The notes below the pieces were generated by a model. It saw only the letters and a list, made by a program, of their open reading frames with translations, did not search any database and was not told where the DNA came from. This document shows, one piece after another, positions 6,011 through 42,161 of a DNA stretch of 64,000 nucleotides. Position numbers and translations under genes: made by a program. Within the stretch, counting starts at the first letter, position 1; each line of letters starts with the position of its first letter. This DNA is from a virus (taxonomy: Duplodnaviria; Caudoviricetes): positions 1 through 64,000 of IMG/VR virus record IMGVR_UViG_2894272399_000002; one strand, 5' to 3'.

Positions 6011-6030
6011 TAAGTGTGTGCTTTGCAAAA

Positions 6031-15438: not shown

Positions 15439-15462
15439 CAGTATTTTTTTACAATATCAAAC

Positions 15463-16164: not shown

Positions 16165-16527
16165 ATGAAATATCTTGTTTTTATATTATTGTTCTCGGCA
16201 ACGGCAAGTGCCCAAGTCTTTGTCAATGGCGCCAACATCAACACTGTCAGGGAAATCAAAGTAATCGAGCTTATTGTCTTAGAAGACTTTGTTGCATCAC
16301 CCAACATCACCGCTTCTATCGATTACGGCCAAGAGCGTAAAGAACTTGAAGGCAAGATTACCAACGCAGCTGGTGAAAAAGTGAAATTCGGATCCATTGT
16401 CTGGGCAATAAATTACCTAGAAAATAGAGGATGGGAGTACGTCAATAACTCAATTATACAAAAAGGGCGTGGCGTAATTTACCGTTACTATTTCCGGAGA
16501 AAATCAACCGCCTCCGATGGAGCGTAG
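16165..16527 (+). CDS. Secreted small protein convergent with the tape measure gene
   Basis: Signal peptide MKYLVFILLFSATASA|Q; AINYL...GWEYV and YYFRRK motifs. Confidence 0.7.
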   Translation: MKYLVFILLFSATASAQVFVNGANINTVREIKVIELIVLEDFVASPNITASIDYGQERKELEGKITNAAGEKVKFGSIVWAINYLENRGWEYVNNSIIQKGRGVIYRYYFRRKSTASDGA

Positions 16528-23552: not shown

Positions 23553-23881
23553 TACTGTTTCTGATTTTCAGCAGCAGCTTTCGCTTCCTGTTCAGCTTTC
23601 AGTTTTGCAGCGGCATCGGCCTCTTGCGCGGCCTTCTCAGCAGCAGCTTTCGCAGCATCGTCAGTAGGCTCTGATTTTGGTTTAACGGTCTTCTTTGGCG
23701 CCTCAATCAAGCCACGGCTCACAAGGCTTTCGAGCAATGCTTCGTCAAAATGACTCACATCATCACCTTCTTCATAAGCCTTCTCAAAGTTGTCCCTGTC
23801 GCGAAACGGAGACAAAACCAGGTACCCGGATGAGACTTCCTGAGCCTCATCCGGGGTTTTGGTGGTGTTTTTCTTAGCCAT
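23552..23881 (-). CDS. Small head-associated protein with Ala/Lys/Glu-rich tail
   Basis: Follows the capsid gene; VLSPFRD...Y..GD...L..RGLI pattern. Confidence 0.55.
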   Translation of the reverse strand: MAKKNTTKTPDEAQEVSSGYLVLSPFRDRDNFEKAYEEGDDVSHFDEALLESLVSRGLIEAPKKTVKPKSEPTDDAAKAAAEKAAQEADAAAKLKAEQEAKAAAENQKQ

Positions 23882-26143: not shown

Positions 26144-26286
26144 CAAATATAAAAATAAATATATTCTAAAAACAAATGTATTTAAATCATTAAAGAAAAT
26201 ATTTTATTGTCATTTGATGACATTAAAGAATAATATTAAAATGAATATCAATTTATATATGTTTTATTTCAGAATGTATATATTTG
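26144..26286. promoter_or_regulatory. Divergent late promoters with operators
   Basis: TATATTTG on minus (26144-26151) and plus (26279-26286); palindromic boxes at 26161-26179 and 26259-26277. Confidence 0.7.
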
Positions 26287-26313: not shown

Positions 26314-26763
26314 ATGCGATTGATCAGCACAGTGCTCACACTACTGTTAATGTTGTCAACCCTGGGATCACTTCAGGCGCAGACTACATTCACCATTACC
26401 ATCCCTCAGGACGTAGCCACTAAAGAGTGGGTTCAGGATTACGTCAAAAAGAAGATTGATAGCCTGAACGCTATTCAGCATGCCCCATTCCCGCCCTGCA
26501 CTCAAGGCCCCGAGATACGCGAGATAATAACTGCATCGAAAGACTACCTAACCGTAAAATTCCACGGTGTGAATGTCACCTCGCTGGACTACATCATTTT
26601 CAATAACGCCCAAATCAGAACGGGGCGATTAAAGCCTGAGTCAAGCACAATCAAATTCAGCTTTAAAGAACTTCCAACCGGGACGTATTCACTGACCCTG
26701 AGCGGCGGAATGTGCACAGGTTCAGACACAAAGACATTTAAGATTAAGAACAACACACTATAA
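26314..26763 (+). CDS. Secreted protein with one Cys-bounded Ig-like domain
   Basis: Signal peptide LQA|Q; ATKEWVQDY motif; C..GP.I...GTY.L.L.G..C domain. Confidence 0.75.
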   Translation: MRLISTVLTLLLMLSTLGSLQAQTTFTITIPQDVATKEWVQDYVKKKIDSLNAIQHAPFPPCTQGPEIREIITASKDYLTVKFHGVNVTSLDYIIFNNAQIRTGRLKPESSTIKFSFKELPTGTYSLTLSGGMCTGSDTKTFKIKNNTL

Positions 26764-26764
26764 A

Positions 26765-29341
26765 ATGAAGGGCATATTTCGTTTACTTCTCTTACTGATA
26801 TCGCTGCCTGCGCTGAGCCAGTCGACAATCACAGTGCCTTCTTCGGGTACGGTCGCGACCGAGGCATGGGTAAAAGAATACTTCTTCGAGCAGCTTGAAA
26901 AGTATGCAATCTCTGATTGTGACCTCAAAGCTGTCGACGTTACTCATGACGGTACGTCGCTTGAATTTGGACTGTCGGGCACACCTCCGGATCTGAACAA
27001 TTATTCCGTCCGAATCACCAAAGGCTCGCAGATCTGGTATTGGAATGATATCCCATATGTTGCAGGTGAACGACTAAGGATCGAAAACGTACCAAGCATT
27101 GATTCAGCTAGGGTAACGATCCGCCCGGTCATTCGACCTACCTGTTACTATTCTTTTGGTTATAATCTTGGAGGGGGTGAAAATCCGGATCCCGGGGAAG
27201 ATACGACTGTCGTCACTCCTGTTTGTCAGGCTGGCCCGACGATCCTGTCTGTATATAATGTAACAGCATCAGGTCTTACTACCCAGTTTCACGGTAACGG
27301 CGTAACCCTTTTACAATATAAGGTAAAAGATGGTACCGGTGCGACCATACGCACAGGTCAGATAGCGCCATCTTCTTCCATTCTGAATATTGGTTTCTCT
27401 TCTGACATTACGGCCGGAAGCTACACGCTCAGGCTTGAAGGTGTTTCCTGTATTGGATTTAGTGAAAAACAGTTTACCCTTGAAGTTGGCGGTGGTGGGC
27501 CGCCCCCTTCCGGTAATGTCGTAGCCAAACAGGTAACCAAAGGTCTGCCCGAACACATGAACCTGGTGATTACCGGGACAGGTGCAGACAAGAAGATCAC
27601 AGACCTTGCCACAATCACTCCTCCCGACGGATACGAATTCCGTTATTTTATCAACGACCAAGTTGTTAAGCAGTCGACAAGGCTTATCAACTACCCCTGG
27701 CCTTCCGAAGTCCCTCTTGCAGTCTACAAGTTCCAGATCCGGCCAGATGTAAACAGCATTTATACATGGGGTTACGATGAAGGCTGGAAAGACCCGAACG
27801 CGGGACGGACATTCAGCTACAATACAACTTGCGCTTTTGCCACGTTCGTTTTCGACGACGAAGCATCAGGATATAATTCTTCCAAGCGGGTTCCGCAATG
27901 GATGGATTACCTGCCCGATATGCCCGCAACAGACGGGAAGATCTGGGTTATGCCAAAAGGCCCGATCAACACGATCGATCAGCTCACCTCAAAGGGAGTA
28001 ACCAACTTTTCAAACTACGAGATTGCCAGTCTTTCAAGTGCGGAGATTAACGCGCTTGCGAATGCAGGGAGGACGTACGACGAAGTACCTCAAACTCAAA
28101 GCCAATTAAGCCTACCTGATCGCGGTGCTGGTCAATGGAAACCTGACGGTGTTGGTTGGCCTGGCAACTGGAATACAAGGTTCTTCGATTACACGCCAGG
28201 TCAAAGCGAACCTCTTACCAATGAACAAGGGGCAGCCAAAGGCAATCAATACTCCGTCACCCATAGGCTTGTTGTATTTGAAAACAGCGAGCAGGATCAC
28301 GCGATTGGTACTCAGTGGAGCTTCTGGAAACCTTACTACCAAAACTATACTGCCCGGCATAACTCAAGATTTCCGGGAACGGCACGGGTTGCACATAATT
28401 ACTTCACCGGCCCCATCAATCAATATCCTGACGGTTCATCCTGGGATAGCAAGAAAGCGGCTTACGGCTCAAATCCTTCTGTATTAGGATATGCGAACAG
28501 GTTACAGACAAAGAACTTACTGATTGCTCCGGTTTCAGATTGGCCTCCTTCCAATATGCTTCCGGGCAACAATATGGAGGATGTCAATTCTGCATGCTAC
28601 GGGTTGTACTTTAATGATATCGGCGATACGCCCAACAATCCTTACCGGATGATCTATAAGGCGCATTTAACCCACAAGGTCAATAAATACCTGTTGGGAT
28701 TCATGCAGACCTTTTACGAGTGGAACCCTAACAACCTGCAAGAAACCGTCTTTCCGGAAGGCAAATTCTATAAGTATGTGAAGATGCCGCATAGCCCGGC
28801 GCAGGTCATTACATACGCCTTTATCAGCCGCGTATTCCTGGATGGATTTATCCCCTTTACCGCCGCCTCGAAAACAGACGGAAATTTCCGCTACGACAAA
28901 CAATGGTGGGGAAATAGCCTCTGGTATCCCAACGGAGCCACAAGCCCACAGAATAACGATTCATTCCCATACTGGAAACAGCCGGGACAAAACGAAGCCT
29001 TTGCAACGTCAGGCTTTGAGGATGCGGTGGGGATCGGGATGTATGAATACTACAAAACATTCATGCAGACGGCTGGCGGGACTCGTCAATTCCTCCGGTA
29101 CCGATTAGATGGCGGGGCATGGGTTGAAGCACAAAACAACAATCTATATGATGTTGTCGATGCTTTCTACGACAAAAGGGCAATCGTTTTCAGTGAGGTC
29201 AAAGCCGGAAAACTGGCGGTTATGTACCTGAACCCCTATGCTGACGGAGCAGTCCGGAATCTTGAATACCAATACAATGGAGTCACTTATTCAATGCCTG
29301 TCGCCTCGGTGATGGTGCATGCTAAACTGCATAATTTATGA
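26765..29341 (+). CDS. Large secreted protein (Ig-like domains plus unknown C-terminal domain)
   Basis: Signal peptide ALS|Q; ATEAWVKEY; CQAGPTI...GSYTLRLEGVSC. Confidence 0.8.
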   Translation: MKGIFRLLLLLISLPALSQSTITVPSSGTVATEAWVKEYFFEQLEKYAISDCDLKAVDVTHDGTSLEFGLSGTPPDLNNYSVRITKGSQIWYWNDIPYVAGERLRIENVPSIDSARVTIRPVIRPTCYYSFGYNLGGGENPDPGEDTTVVTPVCQAGPTILSVYNVTASGLTTQFHGNGVTLLQYKVKDGTGATIRTGQIAPSSSILNIGFSSDITAGSYTLRLEGVSCIGFSEKQFTLEVGGGGPPPSGNVVAKQVTKGLPEHMNLVITGTGADKKITDLATITPPDGYEFRYFINDQVVKQSTRLINYPWPSEVPLAVYKFQIRPDVNSIYTWGYDEGWKDPNAGRTFSYNTTCAFATFVFDDEASGYNSSKRVPQWMDYLPDMPATDGKIWVMPKGPINTIDQLTSKGVTNFSNYEIASLSSAEINALANAGRTYDEVPQTQSQLSLPDRGAGQWKPDGVGWPGNWNTRFFDYTPGQSEPLTNEQGAAKGNQYSVTHRLVVFENSEQDHAIGTQWSFWKPYYQNYTARHNSRFPGTARVAHNYFTGPINQYPDGSSWDSKKAAYGSNPSVLGYANRLQTKNLLIAPVSDWPPSNMLPGNNMEDVNSACYGLYFNDIGDTPNNPYRMIYKAHLTHKVNKYLLGFMQTFYEWNPNNLQETVFPEGKFYKYVKMPHSPAQVITYAFISRVFLDGFIPFTAASKTDGNFRYDKQWWGNSLWYPNGATSPQNNDSFPYWKQPGQNEAFATSGFEDAVGIGMYEYYKTFMQTAGGTRQFLRYRLDGGAWVEAQNNNLYDVVDAFYDKRAIVFSEVKAGKLAVMYLNPYADGAVRNLEYQYNGVTYSMPVASVMVHAKLHNL

Positions 29342-29601
29342 AAATTGGATTCAAAATTGAAGCGGCAGATACAAATCGTATGAATCCTTGGAATGGACAT
29401 AAGCACACGGATGGATGTTGGTGTCGATTAACGTACGGTTTTTGGACGGTGGATGCTGGTCGGTACTCACTGATTGATTTTGTTCTACTCTCTGAAATGC
29501 CAAGACGCAAGTTCCACTTTTCCAATACAGTGTTCTTTTCACATCGCTACATAAGGTTGAAAATTGGAAAAATATTCATCGAGATCTCATTACCAGTATG
29601 A
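29338..29601 (+). CDS. Hypothetical protein
   Basis: Start and stop overlap the flanking ORFs. Confidence 0.45.
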   Translation: MKIGFKIEAADTNRMNPWNGHKHTDGCWCRLTYGFWTVDAGRYSLIDFVLLSEMPRRKFHFSNTVFFSHRYIRLKIGKIFIEISLPV

Positions 29602-29726
29602 CTAAAATCGAAAAAGCAATCCTCCTTGGACTTGTAGCGATCACAGCAGCCGGTATGCTGACACTTTGCTACGGAGCTTATCAAAACCAAAAAAACAGAG
29701 AAACGCATGAAGAACCCTGGGGTTAA
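29598..29726 (+). CDS. Small single-TM protein (42 aa, not in ORF track)
   Basis: MTKIEKAILLGLVAITAAGMLTLCYG...; ATGA overlap with the previous stop. Confidence 0.45.
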   Translation: MTKIEKAILLGLVAITAAGMLTLCYGAYQNQKNRETHEEPWG

Positions 29727-29935
29727 GAAAGCAACCAGTAAGCCCTGCCAGAGTTGCAAGATAAAATGTGCAAGGCCAAGGGATCCGAGGCGACCAAAGA
29801 AAGAAGATAACGAATTACCATAGTTCTTATTGTGCGGTTAATGGTGAGCAAAAGGTGTCGGAAGGTTTTCTGACATCTTTTTAAAAGACCAAAACCCCGA
29901 TCAAGAAGTAAGAATACCAAAGTACACACACGATA

Positions 29936-32002
29936 ATGAGATTCAAACACACACTATTATCCTTATTGCTTTCATTCTCCTGCTTTGCTCAGGTAGATCT
30001 GCATATCCCAAACGCTGGCAACGCAGCTACAAGGGAGTGGGTAAAGGTGTATTTGGATGAGTGGCTTACCCGCGTGCCCCCACCGGTTATCAATCCTCCC
30101 GCCGACACTGCGAGCGGGCTTCCTGCATGCACATCCGGGCCGATTATCAATTCAGTAAGCAATGTCACGAAGACGAGCCTCAAAGCTTCTCTTTCCTTCA
30201 CGGGCGTCACGAGCCTTAACTGGGCAATCTATAAATCTTCGGCGCCTGGTTTGATTTTAAAATCCGGCAACATCTCGCCACTGAACGGTACAAACAATAT
30301 TAATTGGGTGGGTGACCTCGTTCCGGGCGAACATGTATTGAAAGTTTACGGTGTCAATTGCACAGGTGGTTCGACTTCCAATTTCATTTTAAGCTCAACT
30401 CCTACCCCTCTGCCTTGTACTGCTGGGCCGGTTATTCTGAACCTATTCAATGCAACTAGAACTGGATTAATCTTTGAATGGTCGGGGCTCAATGTCCCTG
30501 AAATTGTTTGGACAATCAAGCAGGGGGCGACCACAATCCGGTCAGGTTCGTTTGTGACTTCCGGAGCGCAGACTATCAATATCAGCTACACGCAGCTTGG
30601 GTTTGGAACGTACGACCTGCAGTTGAACGGGCTTACCTGCCCTACCCAGACAGCAGCAAGGTCATTTACGCTGATTGACAACACTCCTACCCCAACAACG
30701 GCAAGAGCATTTTATCTGAACCTGACAGGTTACGGATGGGATCAGGAAGACCCTACTGGCATTCGAGTTGACAATCGAAACATGATTGACGCCTTTGTCA
30801 ACATGAATTACCAGGGAACCAACTTTAAAGGGATTCAGGGCCTTCGCATAAACATCAAATGGTACGAGTACGAGCCATCAGAAGGAAACTTTCAGGACTC
30901 CCGGTTGCTGGCAATATTGAACTGGTGCAAATCCCGTGGAATTAAACTTTCGGTAGCTCTCATTCCATGGAGACGCGAGGGAGATAACATGATCCCAAAT
31001 GGACACAAATCAACGCTGATCAATGACCGTATCTGGTATGCAGAAGGTTCGTTGCAAGATTTGACCACCTACAAAACCTATCAACCAAGCACCCAGAGCC
31101 CTATTGGACGGGAGAAGTTCAGACGCGTCGCACGGCACATGGCCCAAACGCTAAATCAGTTCCCTAATGATGTCGACTACATCTCCACGGCAACCGCGCT
31201 TACGGAAGAGTATCAGTTGATCCGCGATGAAAGCCCTATGCTGATGACTGGATACAGCCAGATCGATAAGGAAGCTTGGAACACGTTCGCGGGAGGACTG
31301 CCTGTCCCATATCCTGCTAGTTACTCGGATGTTTCAAGCATCGAATCAATGATGTCGACTAGTAACGGTCGAAAATGGTACGAATTCCAGACAAAAGGGC
31401 TCAAAGATTTTCATGCTGAATTCGTCGCAGGCGTCAAAGAAGGTGGACTCAGGGCTTGCGGAATGTATGCTGGTGCAGGGGCCCCTTCCGCTGTTTATGA
31501 TTTCACTTACAAGCTCAACGAGATATACAGCGCCGGGCAACCCAATCAGCCGAACATCATCTATTCATCCGAAGGTGATGCCGGTAGCCAAGGAAGCAAG
31601 CTCATGGCAACTGACCTGAACATGGGCACATTCCCAGCGTCGAACTATGCAATTGAATTTGACCCAGAAGACATCGCTGCGAATCAGGTGCACAATCCGC
31701 CCTACGGAATCGATTTGAACGGGAACCTCCTTTATCAATATGCATCATCATTTTTCCGGAGAGGTGGCAACATCGTTCATTTCGCAATGTCTTTCGCCCC
31801 GAACAAGCTTCATCAGATTTATGAGGCAATGTTCAATCTGCGAAACCAATTCATCGACACTAACTCGGGAATGACCGGAATTGATCAAGGAACACCATTC
31901 AACTTCCCGATCACAAATTATACAGGAATGCAAGGATATCGCGGACAATGGTCGGCAAACGGAGGCGGGTTGAACAAACAAGTCAAATTCACATTGCAAT
32001 GA
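29936..32002 (+). CDS. Secreted protein with two Ig-like repeats and a TIM-barrel glycoside hydrolase-like domain
   Basis: Signal peptide CFA|Q; ATREWVKVY; KWYEYEPSEGNF resembles the W..EP.EG.F motif of GH42/GH35-like enzymes. Confidence 0.75.
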   Translation: MRFKHTLLSLLLSFSCFAQVDLHIPNAGNAATREWVKVYLDEWLTRVPPPVINPPADTASGLPACTSGPIINSVSNVTKTSLKASLSFTGVTSLNWAIYKSSAPGLILKSGNISPLNGTNNINWVGDLVPGEHVLKVYGVNCTGGSTSNFILSSTPTPLPCTAGPVILNLFNATRTGLIFEWSGLNVPEIVWTIKQGATTIRSGSFVTSGAQTINISYTQLGFGTYDLQLNGLTCPTQTAARSFTLIDNTPTPTTARAFYLNLTGYGWDQEDPTGIRVDNRNMIDAFVNMNYQGTNFKGIQGLRINIKWYEYEPSEGNFQDSRLLAILNWCKSRGIKLSVALIPWRREGDNMIPNGHKSTLINDRIWYAEGSLQDLTTYKTYQPSTQSPIGREKFRRVARHMAQTLNQFPNDVDYISTATALTEEYQLIRDESPMLMTGYSQIDKEAWNTFAGGLPVPYPASYSDVSSIESMMSTSNGRKWYEFQTKGLKDFHAEFVAGVKEGGLRACGMYAGAGAPSAVYDFTYKLNEIYSAGQPNQPNIIYSSEGDAGSQGSKLMATDLNMGTFPASNYAIEFDPEDIAANQVHNPPYGIDLNGNLLYQYASSFFRRGGNIVHFAMSFAPNKLHQIYEAMFNLRNQFIDTNSGMTGIDQGTPFNFPITNYTGMQGYRGQWSANGGGLNKQVKFTLQ

Positions 32003-32039
32003 CTTCCCTTCCACACATGAACATTTTAAAAGAAGACCA

Positions 32040-32366
32040 ATGGAAGAATTATTAAGGAACCTGGGGGTTAAGGCCGAAAATATGCTCATGTCATTTTTTG
32101 CCGCCACCATATTTGTGATTATCAGGATCTACGAGCCCGAAGTGCCCCTATCCCGAAGAAAGGTGATATACGTGATCACTTCCGGAGCGGCTACGGCTTT
32201 GTTAGTCCCTGGCTTAGTGGTGTATTGGTTTAAAGTCGATAATGCATTCATGGCCGGGTTTGCTACCGCCGTGGTAGTGCTCTCATTCGAGTTTATCGTG
32301 CAGATAATTAGGGAAAAAGTAATCAGAAAGCTAAAAGACAAAGATGATGGAACTACAATTCATTGA
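32040..32366 (+). CDS. Holin-like membrane protein
   Basis: 108 aa, three TM segments, charged C-terminus, upstream of the endolysin. Confidence 0.65.
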   Translation: MEELLRNLGVKAENMLMSFFAATIFVIIRIYEPEVPLSRRKVIYVITSGAATALLVPGLVVYWFKVDNAFMAGFATAVVVLSFEFIVQIIREKVIRKLKDKDDGTTIH

Positions 32367-32685
32367 ATGGATCGTAAAGGGAGTAACTGTGTTGCTTTGC
32401 GGCGGAGTCCTTGCTATTACGCTCATATCGCACAACACATTAAAGACGAAGAACCGGGATGCAGTGAAAGAGCAAATCCGTCGGTCTAACGGAGATACCC
32501 TGGGAGGTAAGATATTTTTTTACTGCATCATCCTGTTTTGCCTGAATGGGTTCTATTGGGGGTTGACGGTGTTTACGCAAGGCTTTTTAACTGCTGCGAT
32601 TGTAGCCGAAAGACTTATCACTTACAGGATTTGCAGAGCAAACAAGGACGGGTTAGGGCGGTTTTTGGCTCGTATTGATTGGTAA
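32344..32685 (+). CDS. Second lysis-associated membrane protein
   Basis: Two or three TM segments between holin and endolysin. Confidence 0.55.
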   Translation: MMELQFIEWIVKGVTVLLCGGVLAITLISHNTLKTKNRDAVKEQIRRSNGDTLGGKIFFYCIILFCLNGFYWGLTVFTQGFLTAAIVAERLITYRICRANKDGLGRFLARIDW

Positions 32686-33128
32686 TGAAGACACAAAAGC
32701 AGTTAATCGAGAAGTTCGGCAACCCGGCGGTAGATAACATCACATTTGAAAGAAAATGGATGACATTATGGCATGTTCCGGAAGCTATCGGTGATCATAT
32801 TCCGGCTATTCCTGGTAAGATATACCTCAATAATCTGATCAAAGAACGCCTTGAAACGACTTTGTTCGCATTGATAGAAGCTGACCTTCATTCGGAGATT
32901 AAAACATTTGACGGCTGCTTCAACATACGCAAGAAACGGGGACTAGAAACACTTTCCTTACACGCCTTTGGGATAGCAGTAGATCTTAACGCGGCCTGGA
33001 ACCAATTAGGCAAGCCAAGTACCTGGAGTAATGATTTTATTGAAGTATGGCGGCGCAATGGATGGGAATGTGGCGCAGACTGGAAGGGACGGATTGATGC
33101 AATGCACTTCCAATGGGATAATTTTTAA
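32679..33128 (+). CDS. Endolysin, M15 metallopeptidase
   Basis: R...LSLHAFGIAVDLN (SxHxxGxAxD) and DAMHFQ. Confidence 0.88.
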   Translation: MVMKTQKQLIEKFGNPAVDNITFERKWMTLWHVPEAIGDHIPAIPGKIYLNNLIKERLETTLFALIEADLHSEIKTFDGCFNIRKKRGLETLSLHAFGIAVDLNAAWNQLGKPSTWSNDFIEVWRRNGWECGADWKGRIDAMHFQWDNF

Positions 33129-33134
33129 CACACT

Positions 33135-34196
33135 ATGAATAAGGTTAAACACGCTTTTTGCTTCCCTGGTGGTGGTTTTAAAGGGGCCACGCAAGTAGGC
33201 TTTCTGAAAGCTGCCATAGAGCACAATATCCATGCAGACATTATCAGCGGCACTTCCGTCGGAACGCTGGTAGGAGCTTTTGCGGCTATGCGCAAGTACA
33301 ATTTACTTTTCGACCTATGGGATCATGTAGGTAAAACGAATGGTTCTATCATCACAAAAACCTATCTGGCTGAGCTTCGTGACGGAGGTGTTTATCCAAA
33401 CATCGACCAGATTAAAGACATTCTTACAAATGGGATTGGCTTCAAAGACAAGATCGGGTTAATCACCAAAAAAGGCCAGCAGAAGTTTATCCAGAAAGTA
33501 ATCGAGAACGGTAAATCCATCGATAAAATCATGGACAACAGCCCGCTCTTCGACTTACTGACACAACACGTATTCAAAAAAGACTTTCAGGCTGACTTCC
33601 ATTTCACGCTGGTGAGCCTTTATGACGGGAAGTTGTACAAGGTCAATCAAAACAGCTTTGCCGATGATCATAACCTTCGTCTTGGCATGCTGGCAAGTAC
33701 CGCAATGCCCGGAGTATGGGCTCCGATTCCATGGATCAGGTTAGCCGACGGAACATTTATCCGGGACGCGGTGGACGGTGGACTCAGAATGTCCAGCCCG
33801 CTTCCGCTGATTATGTCAAAGCTCACAAAAGGAAATCCATGGAAGGTTTACACTCCGAACGCAAATAGTATCTATCAGTCAATCAATGATCAGAAAAAGA
33901 ATCTGGTCACCCAGGCGGCTTCTGCTATTGATATACTTCTCAATGAGGGGCTTCAACGGGATATCAAAATGACCGAGAAGATCAACGAATGGGCTTTGAA
34001 GTATCCGGAATGGGCAGAGAAGGAAGGGATTGTATATGCCGAGCTCTTCAACATCGAAGTGCCGCTCAACGAGAGAGGCGAAAGTTTGCTCGGTCGAACA
34101 CTTGACCCGCGGGCAGAATGGATTGAAAAGCGGATCCAGATCGGGTACGAAAGCGCGACTAAGATTTTCCAAAACCTTTCAACTCAGGCGGCATAA
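33135..34196 (+). CDS. Patatin-like phospholipase
   Basis: GGGFKG, GTSVG (GxSxG) and DGG motifs. Confidence 0.9.
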   Translation: MNKVKHAFCFPGGGFKGATQVGFLKAAIEHNIHADIISGTSVGTLVGAFAAMRKYNLLFDLWDHVGKTNGSIITKTYLAELRDGGVYPNIDQIKDILTNGIGFKDKIGLITKKGQQKFIQKVIENGKSIDKIMDNSPLFDLLTQHVFKKDFQADFHFTLVSLYDGKLYKVNQNSFADDHNLRLGMLASTAMPGVWAPIPWIRLADGTFIRDAVDGGLRMSSPLPLIMSKLTKGNPWKVYTPNANSIYQSINDQKKNLVTQAASAIDILLNEGLQRDIKMTEKINEWALKYPEWAEKEGIVYAELFNIEVPLNERGESLLGRTLDPRAEWIEKRIQIGYESATKIFQNLSTQAA

Positions 34197-34486
34197 TGGG
34201 CATTTTAATAGGCATGGGCAACATCAACACAGGGTCATTTAAAGCGATGATCAATTCTATGCTTGGCATCCCATCAGGGATTACGAAGGCCCAGCTTCGC
34301 TCGACCGATATGGATACATCGAGTATTGTCTCTGTGACTGACATCGGTGATAATTCGGTTGCGATCTTTCTGCCTGACGACACGGAAAGCGAAGACGACG
34401 GAGAAACAATATTGGTCGACTCGGTAGGCAAACGATTTGAAATTAAGCCCTTAAAAGACGTAGTACTTAATTCCCCGTATCAATAA
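34196..34486 (+). CDS. Small protein resembling a tailspike N-terminal domain
   Basis: DDTESEDDGETILV...GKRF, similar to DTTSPDDSAMVI...RRYKR in the next gene. Confidence 0.55.
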   Translation: MGILIGMGNINTGSFKAMINSMLGIPSGITKAQLRSTDMDTSSIVSVTDIGDNSVAIFLPDDTESEDDGETILVDSVGKRFEIKPLKDVVLNSPYQ

Positions 34487-34494
34487 ACACACTA

Positions 34495-36675
34495 ATGAAA
34501 AAGACACTCACACTATTTTGTTTTTTACTGAATAGCCTTTCCGCTTTCTCTCAAACAACACCCGAGGCGAAAGCAAAAGCTTCGATTGCCAAGATATCAG
34601 ACAACACAATCAAGGCTATAAAGCCATCTGACTTCAGGAATGCATACACCGACATCCTGAACTTGGCTATTTCCCGGGCACCCTTTCTTTCAATGAAAGA
34701 TCTCCGCCTGGGCAAAGCTGATACCGCCCGGGTAGTATTGATCAATGAAGGCGGAAGATCAGGACAGTTCATTTATGACCCAACGGACACCACAAGCCCT
34801 GACGATTCAGCAATGGTGATCAGGTATGGCGCAAGAAGGTATAAACGCCCATTACAGGAGTATGTGACACCTCTGTCATTCGGCGCTGTTGGGGATAGCG
34901 CCACTGATGACGCATCGGCAGTCCGCAAAGCCGCGGCATTTGCCACTGCCAAGAAACGCACATTGCTCATTGAAGCAGGATATGTGTTTACCCTTAATTC
35001 GACTGTGCTTTTTGGTTGCAATGTCGATGGTTACGGCACAATAAAAACTCGTAACAGCGCGTCATTTACAGCGAATGCAAGTAATATGACAATTAAAAAT
35101 ATTACGATAACGGGTAAACACGCTAACGTAATCGCGGGCCGTGGCTTGTACATCAGTTACGCTTCAAATGTGGTCGTTGACAATGTCAAGGCAGTCAGCA
35201 CCATCAGTCAGGGCATATATTTTCTTGGGGGCGTAAATATTAAAGCTGTCAATTGCCGAACAGCAGAGCAGAGAGGGGAGTATGGTGATGGGATTTATTT
35301 TGGCGCTGCCACGAACCCGTCCGCTGCAAACTGTTTCGTTCGTGATTTTCAACGCGTAGGGATTGTTTTTGAACAAGGCTGCACCAGTGCTATTGCGATA
35401 GGCAACACTGTCAAAGATAGCTATCCCGCATGGTCTTCACAGTTCAATGGGGGGATATGGGGTGAGAAAATCAAGGGAGCGATATTCGCAAACAACTACA
35501 TTGAAAATGTAAGGGATAAATCGCTTACCCTCTCACCGAACTCAACCACTACTGCCGGCAAAACTTATAGTTATATCGTTTCCGGAAATACAATGGTCAA
35601 GAGCGCCGAAGGATTTGGGTTTGCCTTTTCAGAGGACCAGATTTTAAATTACAGTGACAACACAACGATCGATGTTCGACGGGGAACAGAAATTGGCCCT
35701 TGCCTTGAAGCCACGCTTTCCAACTCCACATTTGCTCTGAGAGATTCATCAGCGAGCTGGTTTTCTGAGCTAGTCCGGTTTGTCCCGATCACTACAACCG
35801 GCAAAAAGACGAAGCTGACCATAGACAACTGTAAGAATTATATTAATGGAGGTGCCGCAGTTTTAATTACAAACGTTGCAGCCCACAAAGGCGATTTGAC
35901 AGTTCAGAATTGCCGAACCGGAAACTGGGCTTTCCTGCAACAGCCGGTAACACTTGAAGGAGACGTCAATTTCTTCAATTCGAATGCAGACTTTACAGTA
36001 CTCGGCAGTACTCAGCGATATTTGACGAACAGTATAAATGCCACCTTCCGGGAAAGCAATTTAAAAATAGACAAAACCAACACTCTCTTGTTGCAGGGGG
36101 CAAAAGTTGAGTTCATCAACTGCAATATTACAGCTGATTCGACCAGTCAAATACAATTTGGAGTGTTTGGAGCGGAAAACGTTCGGTTCGAAAGTTGCAA
36201 AATTGATAAAGTGAAGCTTTACAATATACGCAAGAACGTTACAAAGCTGTACTTGATCAATAACGAGTTCACAGACTACCAGTCCGAAGGGATTTTTAAT
36301 ACAGTCGTCGTATCACTCAACACCCTGGACGTGCGAGGCAACAAGTTCAGCAGCACACTAACGACCAACGCCCCGATCCAGCTTTTCAACGGCGCAGTAA
36401 ACACAGCCTTTGGAATCAATTCATTCACGAGCTCCACCTTGGTGACTCAGTTTTCTCCGAAATATGATTTCGCGGCCAGGTTGACGAATACATCCACTAG
36501 TGTCCCGAACAAAACATCGTTGAATACATCTTATGGGGGATATAAAGGCGGAACAAAGGTTGTTTATCGATTCATTTCGACCGGCGCAAGAAGCTATGAA
36601 AAAAACGACGATTCGGCGACGTCAGATTGGGAGGAAACCATCTATTCAACAGGCATAAAAAGCTTTTTGCCTTAG
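34495..36675 (+). CDS. Tailspike-like parallel beta-helix protein with signal peptide
   Basis: Signal AFS|Q; VTPLSFGAVGD..TDD pectate-lyase-3-type start; GDGIYF beta-helix repeats. Confidence 0.85.
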   Translation: MKKTLTLFCFLLNSLSAFSQTTPEAKAKASIAKISDNTIKAIKPSDFRNAYTDILNLAISRAPFLSMKDLRLGKADTARVVLINEGGRSGQFIYDPTDTTSPDDSAMVIRYGARRYKRPLQEYVTPLSFGAVGDSATDDASAVRKAAAFATAKKRTLLIEAGYVFTLNSTVLFGCNVDGYGTIKTRNSASFTANASNMTIKNITITGKHANVIAGRGLYISYASNVVVDNVKAVSTISQGIYFLGGVNIKAVNCRTAEQRGEYGDGIYFGAATNPSAANCFVRDFQRVGIVFEQGCTSAIAIGNTVKDSYPAWSSQFNGGIWGEKIKGAIFANNYIENVRDKSLTLSPNSTTTAGKTYSYIVSGNTMVKSAEGFGFAFSEDQILNYSDNTTIDVRRGTEIGPCLEATLSNSTFALRDSSASWFSELVRFVPITTTGKKTKLTIDNCKNYINGGAAVLITNVAAHKGDLTVQNCRTGNWAFLQQPVTLEGDVNFFNSNADFTVLGSTQRYLTNSINATFRESNLKIDKTNTLLLQGAKVEFINCNITADSTSQIQFGVFGAENVRFESCKIDKVKLYNIRKNVTKLYLINNEFTDYQSEGIFNTVVVSLNTLDVRGNKFSSTLTTNAPIQLFNGAVNTAFGINSFTSSTLVTQFSPKYDFAARLTNTSTSVPNKTSLNTSYGGYKGGTKVVYRFISTGARSYEKNDDSATSDWEETIYSTGIKSFLP

Positions 36676-36721
36676 GAATCGCAGTCGCTTAAAAAAGTAA
36701 CAAACACACACGCTATATAAA

Positions 36722-38758
36722 ATGAAAAAAATGCTTTTGTGGCTTGTCCTGATCCTTTCAGGCCTTGCCGGTGAAGTTCAAGGTCAAAACCCGGAGGGAT
36801 ACATCCGGAAGATCCTCAAAGACGGACGTATAATTACTGCCGTACGGGTTGATTCTTACGCTGAAATGCAGGGTCAATGTTTTGTTGGAAGCCCGAAGCA
36901 ATTTGTTGTGGAGACAGATGAGCATTCTGAGGGAAATAATGTATTGTATTACTGGGACGGATATTTGCTTCATACTGGGGGCCCAGGTACGGGTGGCGGT
37001 GGAAGCCAAGGCCCACCGGGGATTCAGGGTATTCAAGGCCCACAAGGGATTCAAGGGTTAAAAGGCGACAAGGGTGATCCAGGGGAACGCGGCCCGCAAG
37101 GGATTCAGGGCCCCACGGGTCTGACAGGAGCGACGGGGCCTGCTGGAATCGCTGGGGCTGCCGGAACAGCTGGGGTGAAAGGGGATAAGGGGGATACGGG
37201 AGCCACGGGGGCTACCGGTCCTACTGGCGCAACCGGACCTGCCAACACGAATGCTTCCGCACTCGAATCCGGAACGGTACCGCTGGCAAGATTGCACTCA
37301 AGTGTACTCACTGAAACCAACGCCTTAGCTCTATCCAATAAAACGATCGATGGGAACAACAATGCTTTGAATGTACTTCAAAGCCAAATTCAAGGCTGGG
37401 CAGCAGCGATGGCTGCAAAAGTCAGCACGACCGGGGACGAGTCAGTAGCAGGCATAAAAACATGGTCGAAAACACAAAGGTTTACCGATACTTGGGCAAA
37501 TAAGCCGCTGATCGTCGGTGTAACAGGCCAGTCTGGCGTAATTGCTTTCGCAAGGGGTTCGGATGGTTCTACACAGGCGCGGTTTGGATATAAGTCTCAG
37601 GGCGAGAATAATATCATTGAAGCGTTTGCACCTGGTGGATCTGGCGCATTTGAAATAAACACGAACGGCGGAACAGGCCTAAAAGTATTTTCGGACGGAA
37701 GGACAGTCGTAGGCCGGGGTATAACCTTAACCAATGATGCTCATTACGATTTTCAATCAAAGGGGCCAACCTACGTGGGCTCTGCATTGAAAGTAGCAGG
37801 TAGTTTTGAAACCAACTCAGACAGTATAAAGGTATTCGCCAATAATGACGCAGCTATTGCTGGAGGGGTGAAGGTTAACCAGTGGTATTATCAGGTACTT
37901 CCTGACGGGGAGTGGGCGCCAAGGATCGCACACGCCGTTAACACTGAACCTATCTTTGGAGAGAAGGCAAGTAGTGGCACAACTCGGATATTTTGGGAGG
38001 GCTCTACGATGGAGCAGTCCTACAAGGCTCAATCTCCTAATTTAGACCACAATATAAGAAGGGCTACCAATAAAACTTCCCCGGTATATAGGTTTGAAAT
38101 AAGGAGATTTGAAAACTGGGCCACAGACTCTGTAAACAATAATACTCAGAATGGGCAGTACAAGGAGCGTACAGAAATGTATCAAGAGGGGGTATCTATC
38201 CCCTTCAATCAGGATGTCTGGGTGTCTTATTCTGTTTACATAGAGCCAGGTGGAGATATATCCTATGGAGGAAACCAGGATTTCTACTGCATGTTGGGGC
38301 AGTGGCATCCTGGCGATGGAGTCCCGAGCGGGGGTCCTTCCTGGGGTATTGAATTACTGGGGCAGGGAAGTCTTAATCTTTTCACAAGAGGTCAGGATAC
38401 ATTGGTCCCCCCATTCTCTGGTGGAAGACCTTGGGCGGTGGACAGAGCCAATATTACCGTATCAAGAGGTGCGTGGCATAATATCGTAGTCCGGGCGAGA
38501 CACAATAAAAGTGTGGGTCAGATTGACTGGTGGGTTGATAACAACCCTACCCCAGTTTATTCGGGAACAAACATTCCGATAGGAAATAATCACACTACAA
38601 TTGGATACTGGAAGTTCGGGATTTATCGGACAACCAATGTGAATGCGTTGGCAGTGAGGTACGCCAACGTGGAAGTAAAAGTCGACGCTACCAACAGTAA
38701 CGCCGTCAATGGCAACACCCTCAAAGGAAGAGTTGCTTCGCCATTACCAATCAATTAA
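36722..38758 (+). CDS. Collagen-like fibre with C-terminal polysaccharide-lyase-like jelly-roll; signal peptide
   Basis: Signal VQG|Q; Gly-X-Y repeats; RFE..ERTE, QWH, RGAWH and YWKFGIYR motifs. Confidence 0.8.
37001..37243 (+). repeat. 27 Gly-X-Y collagen triplets
   Basis: GSQ GPP GIQ ... GAT GPA in frame. Confidence 0.9.
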
Positions 38759-38770
38759 CCATACACACAC

Positions 38771-39154
38771 ATGAAAAATCTCATTATAGTATTCTCACTA
38801 TTGTTAATGGCGACCGTTTCACAGGCCCAGACAATCCGAAAAGGCTTGGTTACTTCCATTATGGCGGCCGGCCGCATTACAGATGGACAAGAGGTAGTCG
38901 CGGCAGACCTTCCATACTTCAAAAGCCAGGGAGCATTCTTTTCGATTATGATTGTTCCCAAGGACGTGGAAAATGTTAAAGAAATTGAGATTATCAAAGC
39001 GCGGTATTACCAGGGGGAAGCTATTCGTAACATTCCATTGATGGTCAACTCTTGGAATACGGTGATGCTCGTGGAGATCGACGACGACAACGAGGCCTTG
39101 TTCGAAGACTATAATGTTTACGTTGGCTTCGGCGATGATGTGCCAGGCTTGTAA
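38771..39154 (+). CDS. Secreted small protein
   Basis: Signal peptide SQA|Q. Confidence 0.7.
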   Translation: MKNLIIVFSLLLMATVSQAQTIRKGLVTSIMAAGRITDGQEVVAADLPYFKSQGAFFSIMIVPKDVENVKEIEIIKARYYQGEAIRNIPLMVNSWNTVMLVEIDDDNEALFEDYNVYVGFGDDVPGL

Positions 39155-39169
39155 AATACACACTAAAAT

Positions 39170-40981
39170 ATGAAAAAGATACTTCTATTGCTGCTTCTGG
39201 CAGCCAATGTCACACATGGTCAGTTTATTGGGGCACCAAGGAGGGGTTTGTCAACTTCCGGCAGTGGTGGCGGATCTGAAACTGATCCTGTTTTTTCCGC
39301 GTCTCCCGCTGCTGGGATAACGTCGCCAAACATTACAAATTGGCTTTCCGCTTATAGCTGGGGAAATCATGCATCCGCTGGTTATCAAATTACATCAAAC
39401 CTAAGTACTGACTTAACACCCAATGCGAGCAAGTATCCCAATGTTAATGCTGTAAATACCGGCCTTGGGCTAAAGGCGAACCTTGCTGGAGGTGCTACAT
39501 TTTCAGGTACTATTATAATGCCGTCTACTTTCTCCGTTGGGACGGTGTCGGCAACAGAGATATCTTATCTTGATGGCGTTACTACATCGATCCAGGCGAA
39601 TATTGATTCCAGGGCCCCAAACAACCTAAATGGGTATGTGTCTGGCGCTGGAACGGTCACTTCCACCGACACCCCGCTTCAAGGTATACAGAAGCTTAAT
39701 GGTAACGACGCGTTAAAAGCGAATTTAGCCGGTGGCAATACATTTACTGGTACACAGTCTTTTCCCTCGACGACATCGATCGGAAATGTATCTTCTACCG
39801 AAATTGGCTACGTTGATGGAGTAACGTCATCAATTCAAACCCAACTTGATTCAAAGGCATCGGCGAACAATGGAACCTTGACAGGCACGACGACAACAGC
39901 GAACCTTGTGCCTGCATCTAACGGGACCTCCGACTTAGGAACGATATCAACCAGGTATTTAAACGGCTATTTCAACCGTATCAATGCAGGGGGAACACTC
40001 ACGCTTATATCTGCTGGCACGAGCGCTATGCAGTTCAGTAATACTTCAACGACGTCGGGATTATTTGCTCAATTCGCGCCGATTACTAACGAATTGATGT
40101 TGCAATCCCCTGGGACTTCTTTTGGAACCAACTCTGGTCATAGATTTCAAAACTTTGGAACATCCCGGTTTGCGGGTAATGCACTGTTTGAGTCGAATAT
40201 TCAAATGTCGGCGTTGCCTGCCATGGGTACAAAACCCGCAGGTGTTCTGGTTGCAGACGGATCGGGTAACATCAGCAGCCGGACAAATGCCCAGCATTTC
40301 GCTGACATCAATGAAATCCAAAACTTCAAAAGGGTAGCGGGATGGGAAGCCCAGGGTAATGGATCGACCGTAAACTCTGCTGGTCTGGCCGTAACAGCAG
40401 AAGGAACAGCCACGGCTCGAAGTGTGGCAACTACCAACTTTTATACAGGCATGCGTCGCCTGAATTACGTAGGAGCGACGACCGCAAACGCACCAGCAGG
40501 GATACGAGGCAACAACGCACAGTTCCAGGTCGCTCGGGGATTCTCGTTCCGTGCAGTTTTTGGTATTCGAGCGTACAACGCCGGACATAGGTATTATGTA
40601 GGCATGGGCGAGGACGCGGATAATACAGTCGATCCTTCTGCTCTCGTGAACAGGCTCAACATGTACGCAGATCCAGGCGATGTCACATGGAAAATACGTG
40701 GAGCGAATGCGTCACAAGGAACCGCCATCGATCTGGGCGCAAACTTCCCAGTTAACACGTCCGAAACAGATTTTTATGATGTGACCTTCAATTGTGAGCC
40801 AGGCGCGACTACGGCCACCTATTTGGTAAGAAGACTAAACACCGGAGATACCGCATCCGGAACTATCAGCACAGTTCCATCCGCTGTCTTAATCCGTCCG
40901 CAGGTGATCGCTGGTAACGCGGCAACGGGAACAGCCGCAAGTATTGACATTGCGAGGGTGGTGGTTATAACAGAGAATTGA
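39170..40981 (+). CDS. Tail-fibre-like protein with signal peptide
   Basis: Signal THG|Q; ETDPVF..SPA, AYSWGNHA and two KANLAGG.TF.GT...TEI.Y.DGVT.SIQ repeats typical of phage fibres. Confidence 0.8.
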   Translation: MKKILLLLLLAANVTHGQFIGAPRRGLSTSGSGGGSETDPVFSASPAAGITSPNITNWLSAYSWGNHASAGYQITSNLSTDLTPNASKYPNVNAVNTGLGLKANLAGGATFSGTIIMPSTFSVGTVSATEISYLDGVTTSIQANIDSRAPNNLNGYVSGAGTVTSTDTPLQGIQKLNGNDALKANLAGGNTFTGTQSFPSTTSIGNVSSTEIGYVDGVTSSIQTQLDSKASANNGTLTGTTTTANLVPASNGTSDLGTISTRYLNGYFNRINAGGTLTLISAGTSAMQFSNTSTTSGLFAQFAPITNELMLQSPGTSFGTNSGHRFQNFGTSRFAGNALFESNIQMSALPAMGTKPAGVLVADGSGNISSRTNAQHFADINEIQNFKRVAGWEAQGNGSTVNSAGLAVTAEGTATARSVATTNFYTGMRRLNYVGATTANAPAGIRGNNAQFQVARGFSFRAVFGIRAYNAGHRYYVGMGEDADNTVDPSALVNRLNMYADPGDVTWKIRGANASQGTAIDLGANFPVNTSETDFYDVTFNCEPGATTATYLVRRLNTGDTASGTISTVPSAVLIRPQVIAGNAATGTAASIDIARVVVITEN

Positions 40982-40985: not shown

Positions 40986-41519
40986 ATGAAACAGACGATC
41001 AAAATACACCTCCTCGAATACAACACGGGACAAATTGAAGGACTTCCGGCGAATCCTCGGTTTATCAAGGACGATAAATACGAAAAGCTTAAAATGAGCC
41101 TTCAGGAAGATCCCGAGATGCTTGAATTACGGGAATTGCTGGTTGTGCCTCTGGACAAAATCTTCGTGGTGATCGCAGGAAACATGAGGCTCCGTGCTGC
41201 CAGTGAGCTCGGAATAAAAGAACTACCCTGTAAGGTGATCGCTGCAGGAACTGATCCTGCAACACTTCGTGCGATATCGATCAAAGACAACATCAGCTAT
41301 GGAAACCACGATTGGGATATGCTCGCCAACGAATGGGAGGTTGAAGAACTCGAACATTGGGGGCTGGACATCCCGGATCTTGGAGCCGACGAAGAAGAAG
41401 CACCCAACACTGAAAAGATCCTGTCAAAAAAGCTGATCATCGAGTGTGGCGATCTGAACGAACTTGAAAAACTATACGGCGAATTGCAGGATAGAGGTTT
41501 TGTCTGCTCGCTTAAATAA
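40986..41519 (+). CDS. ParB/Srx N-terminal-like protein
   Basis: NPR.I, VIAGNMRLRA and IKDN motifs; upstream of the terminase genes. Confidence 0.8.
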   Translation: MKQTIKIHLLEYNTGQIEGLPANPRFIKDDKYEKLKMSLQEDPEMLELRELLVVPLDKIFVVIAGNMRLRAASELGIKELPCKVIAAGTDPATLRAISIKDNISYGNHDWDMLANEWEVEELEHWGLDIPDLGADEEEAPNTEKILSKKLIIECGDLNELEKLYGELQDRGFVCSLK

Positions 41520-42161
41520 TTGACCATGACCGACCCACGAAGAAAAGATAAACAGATCGCAGAAGCCAGACGCGTGATCGTCGCCGAGTGCTATAAAAGG
41601 GGCATGACGATCCGGCAAACCTGCGAGGCTGTCATGAAACAAATGAGTTTGGATGGGCCGCCCAGCACCAAAACGATTTTCAACGATCGGGACTTCCTTC
41701 TCAAAGAATGGAAGAAGGAAAGGATTCAAGATGTGGATGACATGCTCCAACTTGAACTAACCCGGATTGACGATATCATCATTGAGCTTTGGGAGGCCTG
41801 GAAAAAGTCAAAAACCGATTACAAATCAAAATTCTCCAAACAAAAAGGCGAACTGCCCGCGGGTGTTTCTCACGATAGGGATATCGATAAGGAGGAAAGG
41901 AAGCGCATTAAAGCAACGTATGCAGAGCGCGGAGAAAGGGAAGAAATTATGTTCGGAGATCCGAGGTATTTATCAGAGATACGCTTCCAGCTCATAGAAA
42001 GAAGAAAGCTTTTGGGGCTATACGCTCCGGAGAAAAAAGAAGTAACAGGAGCGGGAGGAAAAGACCTTCTACCAGAGAGGACACAGGATATCAGCATGCT
42101 TACAGCCGAAGAGAAAGCCATCCTTTTAGACATTGCACGGAAAGTTGATAGAACAAAGTAG
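41520..42161 (+). CDS. Terminase small subunit
   Basis: N-terminal HTH, GDPRYL, ERRKLLGLYAPEK; position. Confidence 0.75.
   Translation: MTMTDPRRKDKQIAEARRVIVAECYKRGMTIRQTCEAVMKQMSLDGPPSTKTIFNDRDFLLKEWKKERIQDVDDMLQLELTRIDDIIIELWEAWKKSKTDYKSKFSKQKGELPAGVSHDRDIDKEERKRIKATYAERGEREEIMFGDPRYLSEIRFQLIERRKLLGLYAPEKKEVTGAGGKDLLPERTQDISMLTAEEKAILLDIARKVDRTK

Follow-up and report, generated by a model that had tools for sequence, protein, structure and literature searches.

Seven genes with predicted Sec signal peptides around the lysis cassette of a Dyadobacter prophage

Seven predicted signal-peptide genes and the lysis cassette

The DNA analyzed here is a stretch of 64,000 nucleotides (nt), hereafter the window, from IMG/VR virus record IMGVR_UViG_2894272399_000002, and corresponds to C37:117940-181939 of the 8.4 Mb genome of a soil bacterium that the names of close homologues indicate to be a Dyadobacter. 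On its plus strand, between positions 26,314 and 40,981, lie seven open reading frames (ORFs), named here by their first positions (26314, 26765, 29936, 34495, 36722, 38771 and 39170), that begin with the n-h-c organization of a signal peptide. All seven have Met and Lys or Arg in the n-region, an uncharged, hydrophobic h-region and permitted residues at -3 and -1, and in all seven Gln occupies position +1 of the predicted cleavage site. Cleavage is predicted between MRLISTVLTLLLMLSTLGSLQA and Q in 26314 (LQA/Q), and directly before Q after SLPALS in 26765, SFSCFA in 29936, SLSAFS in 34495, AGEVQG in 36722, ATVSQA in 38771 and ANVTHG in 39170. No twin arginine (RR) of a twin-arginine translocation (Tat) signal occurs in the n-regions of the seven ORFs, and Cys, expected of lipoproteins cleaved by signal peptidase II, is found at the predicted +1 position in none of them (0/7). 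A preliminary description of this DNA had stated that seven genes of the late operon begin with a signal peptide followed by Gln, and this was confirmed at every one of the starts; the N-termini are predicted to be of the general secretory (Sec)/signal peptidase I (SPase I) type and to obey the Bacteroidota Q-rule, as it had also proposed.

The signals were called with a crude rule-based scan and by reading the sequences by eye rather than with SignalP, and gene calls in other genomes were taken from our own ORF lists. Of the ORFs in the window with at least 100 amino acids (aa), 11 passed the scan; besides the seven, they are two small ORFs of an island at 6-16.5 kb and two likely false hits, so that false calls number no fewer than two. 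Under the same rule, 1 of 34 ORFs of at least 300 aa was flagged in the isolated relatives PJN03, 11b and phi12:1, and this lone ORF is a terminase and presumably a false hit. The Q-rule, by which Gln follows the SPase I site, is described for Bacteroidota in the available text of PMC5837995 and PMC10653852. The host genome conforms to it, since 777 of its 5186 ORFs of at least 200 aa have a signal-like N-terminus with a site followed by Gln, out of 1727 that are signal-like.

The proteins, called exported here as a prediction from their signal peptides, are modular. Those of 26314, 26765 and 29936 share a post-signal module consisting of a short strand, the motif 'AT.EWV..Y' and one or more immunoglobulin (Ig)-like domains with a Cys pair. 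The 149-aa protein of 26314 (26314..26763) comprises the signal peptide, Gln, the motif 'TITIP..ATKEWV' and one such Ig-like domain, and in that of 26765 (26765..29341; 858 aa) this N-terminal motif is followed by an Ig-like domain and, at residues 365-858, by a TIM barrel with a beta-sandwich. The AlphaFold2 (AF2) model of residues 365-858, with a mean predicted local distance difference test (pLDDT) score of 91.4, is a (beta/alpha)8 barrel plus beta-sandwich. Against glycoside hydrolase (GH) barrels of families GH27, GH36, GH30 and GH5 it gave VIA-align Z scores of 10.5-12, with no family standing out and Foldseek template modeling (TM) scores of only 0.2-0.39. E506, E509 and E652 are invariant in 18 relatives. 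The modeled domain thus appears to resemble glycoside hydrolases, with no assignable CAZy family; an atlas search with 26765 gave scores of ~0.8, which are leads at most. The 688-aa protein of 29936 (29936..32002), encoded directly upstream of the holin-like genes, carries the N-terminal motif of 26314, two Ig-like domains and a C-terminal enzyme-like domain, and one of its homologues was named 'cellulase family glycosylhydrolase' by its source. Sequence searches of the PDB with 26765, 29936 and 39170 returned nothing meaningful.

The remaining four genes include those with the phage-like signatures reported in the preliminary description (a tailspike-type beta-helix, collagen with a lyase-like domain, and fibre repeats), all of which were recovered by profile searches. 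The product of 34495 (34495..36675; 726 aa) is a predicted right-handed beta-helix protein (Pfam Beta_helix, E 3.9e-11) with weak matches to tailspike and colanic-acid-degradation PHROGs and a conserved 65-residue C-terminal module that is 53% identical to that of G125_752; a viral_contigs scan with it found no relative. That of 36722 (36722..38758; 678 aa) is composed of a small N-terminal domain, collagen repeats (Pfam Collagen), a fibre-like linker and a polysaccharide-lyase domain, in which residues 457-639 match PF14099 (Polysacc_lyase) with 49.8 bits against a cut-off of 29.9 (E 5e-13), so that lyase activity is predicted; residues 86-258 match tail-fibre PHROGs. The gene 38771 (38771..39154) encodes a 127-aa protein with the signal peptide and Gln, and 39170 (39170..40981) a 603-aa fibre-like protein with fibre repeats and a tip domain (phrog_9729, E 4e-12). 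The fibre repeats of 39170 are common to many viral contigs. Its tip is 38.5% identical to the C-terminus of gp22 of the Rhodobacter phage RcKemmy and resembles viral proteins of ~200-240 aa in the atlas (score 0.98).

The seven genes belong to a tightly packed plus-strand series that starts from a 170-nt divergent intergenic region and runs through 26314, 26765, 29936, two membrane-protein ORFs, an M15 endolysin gene, a patatin gene, a 96-aa ORF, 34495, 36722, 38771 and 39170 into ParB-like, TerS-like (small terminase subunit), TerL (large terminase subunit), portal and MuF-like genes; the sole notable gap is one of 595 nt after 26765. The two overlapping membrane-protein genes (32040..32685; 108 and 113 aa) have 3 and 2 hydrophobic segments in a Kyte-Doolittle window and match no Pfam family, and are called holin-like from their position. 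They are followed by the endolysin gene (32679..33128; Pfam Peptidase_M15_4, E 7e-13), the gene for a patatin-like phospholipase (33135..34196; Pfam Patatin PF01734, E 2.5e-18) and the 96-aa ORF (34196..34486), for which no family was found and which shows weak similarity to an ORF of 203 aa in the D. flavalbus prophage described below. The endolysin, the patatin and the 96-aa product are without signal peptides. The reported interleaving of the signal-peptide genes with holin-like, endolysin and patatin genes is therefore correct. Signal-less patatins follow the endolysin in the lysis cassettes of three prophages, namely this one, that of D. flavalbus (L143 16474-17454) and G152 (L137 7944-8969). 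A lipoprotein-type spanin-like ORF after the endolysin is present in PJN03, 11b and phi12:1 and was not seen in the window, and the patatin might be an outer-membrane-disrupting component.

A Bacteroidota-type -7 box, TATATTTG (26279..26286, plus strand), lies in the divergent region 28 nt upstream of 26314, and this TANNTTTG box at 26279 is the only intergenic plus-strand copy between 26144 and 45662. A motif scan, in itself weak evidence, found no intergenic terminator-like site on the plus strand, such sites occurring at background level and inside genes. Because of the tight spacing, the single intergenic -7 box and the lack of intergenic terminator-like sites, the signal-peptide genes are likely to be co-transcribed with the packaging genes. 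The earlier claim of a promoter shared with terminase and portal genes can be kept in part: the genes form one late plus-strand unit with terminase and portal, and their co-transcription is likely only.

Conservation of the signals and related prophages

The signals look real when homologues are compared. Among 25 homologues of 29936, a signal was flagged in 22, with Gln in 21, and the three unflagged ones comprise one shortened gene call and two proteins with a different, signal-less N-terminus. All three homologues of 34495 have a signal peptide. Among 150 cluster representatives related to 26765, 70 were flagged, 50 of them with Gln, and many of the unflagged representatives are stand-alone catalytic domains of ~490 aa without a signal. 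In 18 signal-bearing full-length relatives of 26765, Gln19 and the Ig-domain pair C154 and C229 are invariant; the invariance of the pair suggests that Cys154 and Cys229 form a disulfide, and hence an oxidizing compartment. Across divergent homologues, the signal and the +1 Gln are kept while the signal sequence itself drifts.

It is very improbable that these hydrophobic N-termini are start-codon artefacts, uncleaved anchors or relics on ordinary cytoplasmic phage proteins. The false hits of the crude predictor would agree with such a reading, as would the public gene call for 39170 (P0001, 487 aa), which starts 116 codons downstream and thereby loses the signal and the first fibre repeats. 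Against it, the stored forms of 26765, 29936 and 34495 are full-length, the gene starts abut the preceding stops, the related proteins P0003 and P0005 retain a signal at the same place as 39170, and the signal with its +1 Gln is conserved in spite of the drift.

Comparable genes are present in a prophage of D. flavalbus (L143), in which the tape measure protein is 57%, the capsid protein 52% and the portal 39% identical and the terminase is different. It encodes six homologues of 26314, 26765, 29936, 38771, 36722 and 39170 (27-72% identity), all with a signal peptide followed by Gln (hereafter signal-Gln proteins), and the six genes flank a cassette of membrane ORF, GH19-like and patatin genes upstream of TerS. 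The syntenic homologue of 26314 and the homologue of 38771, whose gene in D. flavalbus adjoins the collagen-type gene, are each 50% identical to their counterparts. With the counts for 29936 and 34495, these six syntenic genes indicate that the signal peptides are conserved in homologues, a check that the preliminary description had called for. The preservation of the layout favors a phage function over casual cargo.

Large signal-Gln proteins are also carried by prophages with unrelated structural modules (G152, G084, G125 and G106); they include relatives of 29936 (48% identity), of 26765 (27%) and of the N- and C-terminal modules of 34495, as well as a beta-helix protein matching tailspike PHROGs and a GDSL-type protein. 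In five of five prophages (this one and those of D. flavalbus, G152, G084 and G125), a large signal-Gln enzyme is encoded directly upstream of small membrane ORFs, in a sample that is biased since the five were found by homology to the signal-Gln proteins themselves; patatin is part of the lysis cassette in 3/5, and the holin and several endolysin assignments in the other prophages were made by position and hydrophobicity alone. TerL relatives 62-72% identical to that of the window were present in 3 of 200 genomes of the same family; the divergent layout is kept in them, and the three are without the large genes, having only a few small genes at that place. A further related prophage (L091/L092, G145:C61, 26840-29179) has three tandem signal-Gln ORFs of 198-199 aa after a tail-tube-like gene at a contig end. 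In a phage-like region of a metagenome-assembled Dyadobacter sp. genome (L144, 6161-12333), the catalytic domain of 26765 recurs as a protein of 499 aa without a signal, placed after a 1400-aa protein and before a small lipoprotein-like ORF, so that this enzyme family is also used without export.

These distributions bear on the possibility, which we regard as unlikely but worth serious consideration, that the genes are lysogenic-conversion genes (morons). Their products would then be exported in lysogeny and would remodel, trim or mask the surface polysaccharide of the host from the periplasm, or feed the host, with the outcome that superinfecting phages, including carriers of the signal-less twin fibre described below, are excluded or that biofilm or nutrition is changed. 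There are models for this in the lambda morons lom and bor, which encode signal-bearing envelope proteins beside tail-tip and lysis genes; lom and bor are small genes under promoters of their own, with expression in the lysogen, whereas the genes here are large, enzyme- or fibre-like and without a separate promoter motif. The enzyme domains of 26765, 29936 and 36722 have chromosomal paralogues in the host (four for the lyase domain of 36722), three of which adjoin ORFs that are glycosyltransferase-like by eye, and in 6/6 genomes of the genus searched, large host proteins with a signal contain the Ig-like domain as well. In 50,697 deposited phage genomes, tblastn found no match to 26765, 29936 or residues 181-678 of 36722, and one weak match to 34495. 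Both this near-absence and the host paralogues would suit morons, and the lack of the large genes in the three TerL relatives of the same family would suit accessory cargo. In addition, Q-rule genes of Porphyromonas gingivalis phages are proposed, in the available text of PMC10367356, to modify the host surface. On the other side, no separate -7 box or terminator-like site flanks the genes, although the motif scans are weak evidence; the genes come first after the promoter in a unit that continues through TerS, TerL and portal; they are found on both sides of the lysis cassette here and in D. flavalbus; and the whole layout is kept between these two prophages at 27-72% identity, unlike that of sporadic morons. 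Moreover, the external surface of the outer membrane is out of reach for proteins in the periplasm.

Exchange of the N-terminus and the virion question

The fibre-like protein 39170 belongs to a group in which one body is found with two kinds of N-terminus. P0002 (623 aa) and P0004 start with an N-terminal domain of ~90 residues and have no signal, whereas 39170, P0003 and P0005 have a signal peptide instead. Across 226 aligned positions of the tip, P0002 and 39170 share 93.4% identity, and their repeats are almost the same; the predicted mature 39170 begins ~20 residues before the shaft repeats. Because P0002 and P0004 bear the ~90-residue domain on the same body, the signal of 39170 occupies the place of another N-terminal domain. 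We infer that this domain attaches P0002 to the tail or baseplate. Scans of viral_contigs and metagenome_contigs found nothing related to the N-terminal domain of P0002 and P0004; a scan with whole P0004 matched only the common fibre motif 'NW..AYGW', and a family-level genome search with P0004 returned only this window and two weak repeat matches. Among 119 other proteins with the fibre repeats, only four were flagged for a signal, two of them convincingly. On the moron explanation, the near-identity to P0002 (93%) would mean that the prophage exports a copy of the tip of a rival phage's fibre, and such a copy could mask a receptor.

The exchange also bears on the idea put forward in the preliminary description that the proteins are side fibres or tailspikes of the virion, exported, folded and oxidized in the periplasm, which would dock onto tails once holin, endolysin and patatin break the envelope. 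We consider this improbable. Several observations agree with it: the bodies are fibre-like, with collagen, fibre repeats and a tip domain that in RcKemmy sits in a side-fibre slot, although the likeness to virion fibres holds for 39170 (phrog_9729, RcKemmy gp22 tip) and for the collagen and linker part of 36722; the genes are co-located with late genes; G152 has two signal-Gln proteins in the canonical slot between tail-tip and lysis genes; no other fibre gene is present in the ~81.5 kb element, in which no ORF exceeds 672 aa outside the known modules; and tailspikes can be added to particles in vitro. Against it stands the signal peptide itself, which takes the place of the N-terminal domain borne by the signal-less twins. 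After the predicted cleavage, the N-termini of 34495, 36722, 38771 and 39170 are unlike one another, and none resembles the motif common to 26314, 26765 and 29936, so that the seven have no common docking element. The same protein families occur in prophages with unrelated tail modules, while PJN03 and the relatives with a 62-72% identical TerL are without these genes. No description of signal-bearing phage fibres or tailspikes, and thus no precedent, was found in the literature searched.

The genes of the tail itself are placed elsewhere, the seven genes being on the strand opposite to the tail module, between the scaffold-like gene and the ParB-like and TerS-like genes and ~21 kb from the gene for the Tal-like tail tip protein. 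A tyrosine integrase gene (1..1275, plus strand; Pfam Phage_integrase, Phage_int_SAM_5 and Arm-DNA-bind_5) marks the left end of the prophage. From there the minus strand carries the genes for Tal (1278..4823; 1181 aa; phrog_19846, E 3e-206 over residues 4-852, and weak Prophage_tail) and a Dit-like distal tail protein (4805..6028; 407 aa; phrog_14220, E 1e-97), a low-GC island, the tape measure gene (16504..20655; phrog_9959, E 2e-166), tail genes, the major capsid gene (23881..24969; phrog_29, E 5e-36) and the scaffold-like gene. As had been noted earlier, no fibre gene follows Tal, whose gene (1278-4823, minus strand) abuts the integrase gene (1-1275), with host-like infB/nusA ORFs upstream of the latter, beyond the window start. 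This absence is normal for the lineage, PJN03 likewise having none. Tal has its own distal extension of ~320 residues past the conserved core, which is likely the receptor-binding part of the virion and likewise weighs against staged side fibres.

Taken with the unlike mature N-termini, the absence or near-absence of four of the five large bodies from the 50,697 phages, the host paralogues and the exchange in 39170, these data give little support to seven receptor-binding appendages that are staged in the periplasm and attached at lysis. The preliminary description had allowed that exported receptor-binding or depolymerase proteins are either attached to virions or released as free capsule- or biofilm-degrading enzymes; virion attachment is poorly supported and the free-enzyme option fits the data best. 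A wider version, in which Dyadobacter phages would use two interchangeable delivery heads (a virion-anchoring N-terminal domain or a Sec signal) on the same bodies, and in which the whole arsenal of this prophage would be exported, folded, oxidized and pyroglutamate-capped in the periplasm and dock on released particles at lysis, is equally doubtful. Were it true, such docking of periplasm-matured proteins would be an extracytoplasmic step of tailed-phage maturation.

The rest of the element was mapped as well. A 14-nt direct repeat representing the 3' end of a tRNA gene is found at C37:117781, 159 nt upstream of the window start, and at C37:199243, and brackets an element of ~81.5 kb, compared with 44.5 kb for PJN03, the nearest isolated phage; at nearly twice the size of PJN03, the element may hold nested insertions or require a larger capsid. 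The low-GC island (GC 0.37-0.42; 6029-16503, 10.5 kb) interrupts the tail module, with Dit on one side and the tape measure gene on the other, and contains ~12 ORFs on both strands, among them a helix-turn-helix/metalloprotease-type regulator (12838-13890; phrog_2439) and two more small signal-Gln ORFs (7876-8334, minus; 16165-16527, plus); no Pfam or PADLOC match was obtained for ten island ORFs examined, and an Rfam scan of the window gave no match. Downstream of 39170, the ParB-like, TerS-like, TerL and portal genes (40986..45029, plus strand) show a weak ParB_N match and a TerL 59% identical to that of PJN03, and the portal was identified by position and by 39% identity to the ORF after TerL in D. 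flavalbus. The 561-aa MuF-like head protein (45816-47501, plus) is 48% identical to its D. flavalbus homologue over the first ~350 residues, and its C-terminal extension, which matches RelA_SpoT weakly (E 1.8e-4, below cut-off), is reminiscent of the polymorphic toxin domains fused to MuF. In the right arm of the prophage (52912-54622, plus), the N-terminal sequences are UmuD/UmuC-like (Y-family polymerase) by eye.

Comparison with known systems and a possible function

Like soluble phage depolymerases, the proteins considered here would be phage-encoded, glycan-degrading, made late and free-acting. To our knowledge, the known soluble phage depolymerases are cytoplasmic until lysis and have no signal peptide, whereas here a set of five large proteins has Sec signals with the Bacteroidota +1 Gln. 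Free activity of this kind is familiar from plaque halos, which reflect diffusing depolymerase activity of virions and/or free enzymes according to the available text of PMC6116005. The same source describes Lys44, the endolysin of Oenococcus phage fOg44, which has a typical signal peptide and is exported by the host Sec system before lysis. Lys44 and signal-arrest-release (SAR) endolysins are peptidoglycan hydrolases, whereas in this prophage the M15 endolysin is signal-less and the signals are carried by proteins that resemble glycosidases, lyases, beta-helix proteins and fibres. A bacterial parallel is WceF of Pantoea stewartii, a trimeric tailspike-like beta-helix protein and exopolysaccharide hydrolase in which an export signal replaces the virion-binding domain; its substrate is exopolysaccharide made by the producing bacterium itself, and it may act on this in the periplasm (PMC7949094, available text). 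WceF is encoded chromosomally in an exopolysaccharide gene cluster and has a Tat signal for folded export, whereas the genes here are prophage-encoded in a late operon with Sec-type signals lacking the twin arginine.

Closest in signal type are five genes of Porphyromonas gingivalis phages whose function is unknown and whose products have a predicted cleavage before Gln, which suggests adaptation to host secretion (PMC10367356, Matrishin et al. 2023); the available text of that source describes for them neither an architecture of fibre or depolymerase type, nor a connection with the lysis cassette, nor an exchange of signal and anchor. RcKemmy gp22, a siphophage side fibre encoded between a gpJ-like protein and the holin, shares its C-terminus with the 39170 tip; it has a non-hydrophobic N-terminal domain and no signal, whereas 39170 has a signal and then shaft repeats within ~20 residues. 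Targets of phage diversity-generating retroelements are without signal peptides in the available text of PMC6199706, and in that of PMC5723332 and PMC9658697 signal peptides are mentioned only in methods or counts. The literature searched held nothing relevant on Dyadobacter prophages. The parts are thus known separately, as free depolymerase activity, Sec-exported Lys44, Tat-exported WceF and the Q-rule genes of P. gingivalis phages; a conserved set of fibre- or depolymerase-like proteins with Sec signals around a lysis cassette, with an exchange of signal and N-terminal domain on one body, was not met in the literature searched.

The explanation that we favor, tentatively and with confidence a little short of even, is that the seven genes encode Sec-exported, non-virion proteins that degrade or bind polysaccharide, are made together with the late products, are staged in the periplasm and are released at lysis. 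In its favor count the signal features of all seven and their conservation, the Ig-like domain of large signal-bearing host proteins and the host paralogues of the enzyme domains, the exchange of signal and N-terminal domain in 39170 (with 2 of 25 homologues of 29936 likewise having an alternative N-terminus without a signal), the position of a large signal-Gln enzyme beside small membrane ORFs in five prophages, the gene layout and the precedents of Lys44, WceF and plaque halos. On this explanation, an infected or induced Dyadobacter cell would transcribe the genes from the divergent late promoter region, along with those for lysis and packaging, and would export the seven proteins by Sec. 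SPase I would cut before Gln, which would probably be cyclized as in host proteins. Five of the products would be large modular proteins acting on or binding glycans, namely a GH-fold protein with an Ig-like domain (26765), a homologue of a cellulase-like protein with Ig-like domains (29936), a beta-helix protein, a collagen protein with a lyase domain and a fibre with a tip. These would accumulate in the periplasm rather than be built into the particle, and there and after envelope breakage they may cut or bind the host's own exopolysaccharide or capsule, freeing progeny from matrix and debris. The signal-peptide features with their conservation, the domain content, the gene layout and the exchange of N-termini are observed, and export, late timing, the polysaccharide substrate and absence from virions are expectations.

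Several points weigh against this explanation. At the position of 34495, D. flavalbus encodes an 839-aa related beta-helix-like protein without a signal, so that export is not obligatory for that slot. The advantage of export (disulfides, pyroglutamate capping, early periplasmic action) is only argued, because a cytoplasmic enzyme would also be released at lysis. No C-terminal sorting domain of the type IX secretion system (Por_Secre_tail/TIGR04183 type) was found in the seven at E values up to 0.1 (Pfam) or 0.05 (NCBIfam), and proteins lacking one would be confined to the periplasm, apart from surface polymers, until the cell lyses. Both 39170 and 36722 keep true fibre parts that a free enzyme would not obviously need. 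The promoter evidence consists of one 8-nt motif and is weak, because the -7 motif is not enriched across the window. The seven proteins also show no enrichment over structural proteins in the O-glycosylation motif D[ST][AILVMT] or in total Cys, and an argument for export from these two features was dropped.

In summary, the usual view of phage depolymerases and fibres is that they are proteins of the cytoplasm, which are either assembled into the particle or spilled at lysis. Here, host-adapted export signals are found on a set of such proteins, which is conserved between two prophages and met again in unrelated prophages of the genus, and one fibre is known in two forms, in which almost the same body bears either a signal peptide or an N-terminal domain. 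If they are indeed exported, these proteins would represent a class of glycan-active phage proteins that leave the cytoplasm by Sec and are linked to the lysis cassette, and would caution annotators both against naming every fibre-like prophage protein receptor-binding and against dismissing signal-bearing ones as host genes. They would also be a source of extracellularly stable enzymes active on the polysaccharides of Cytophagales.

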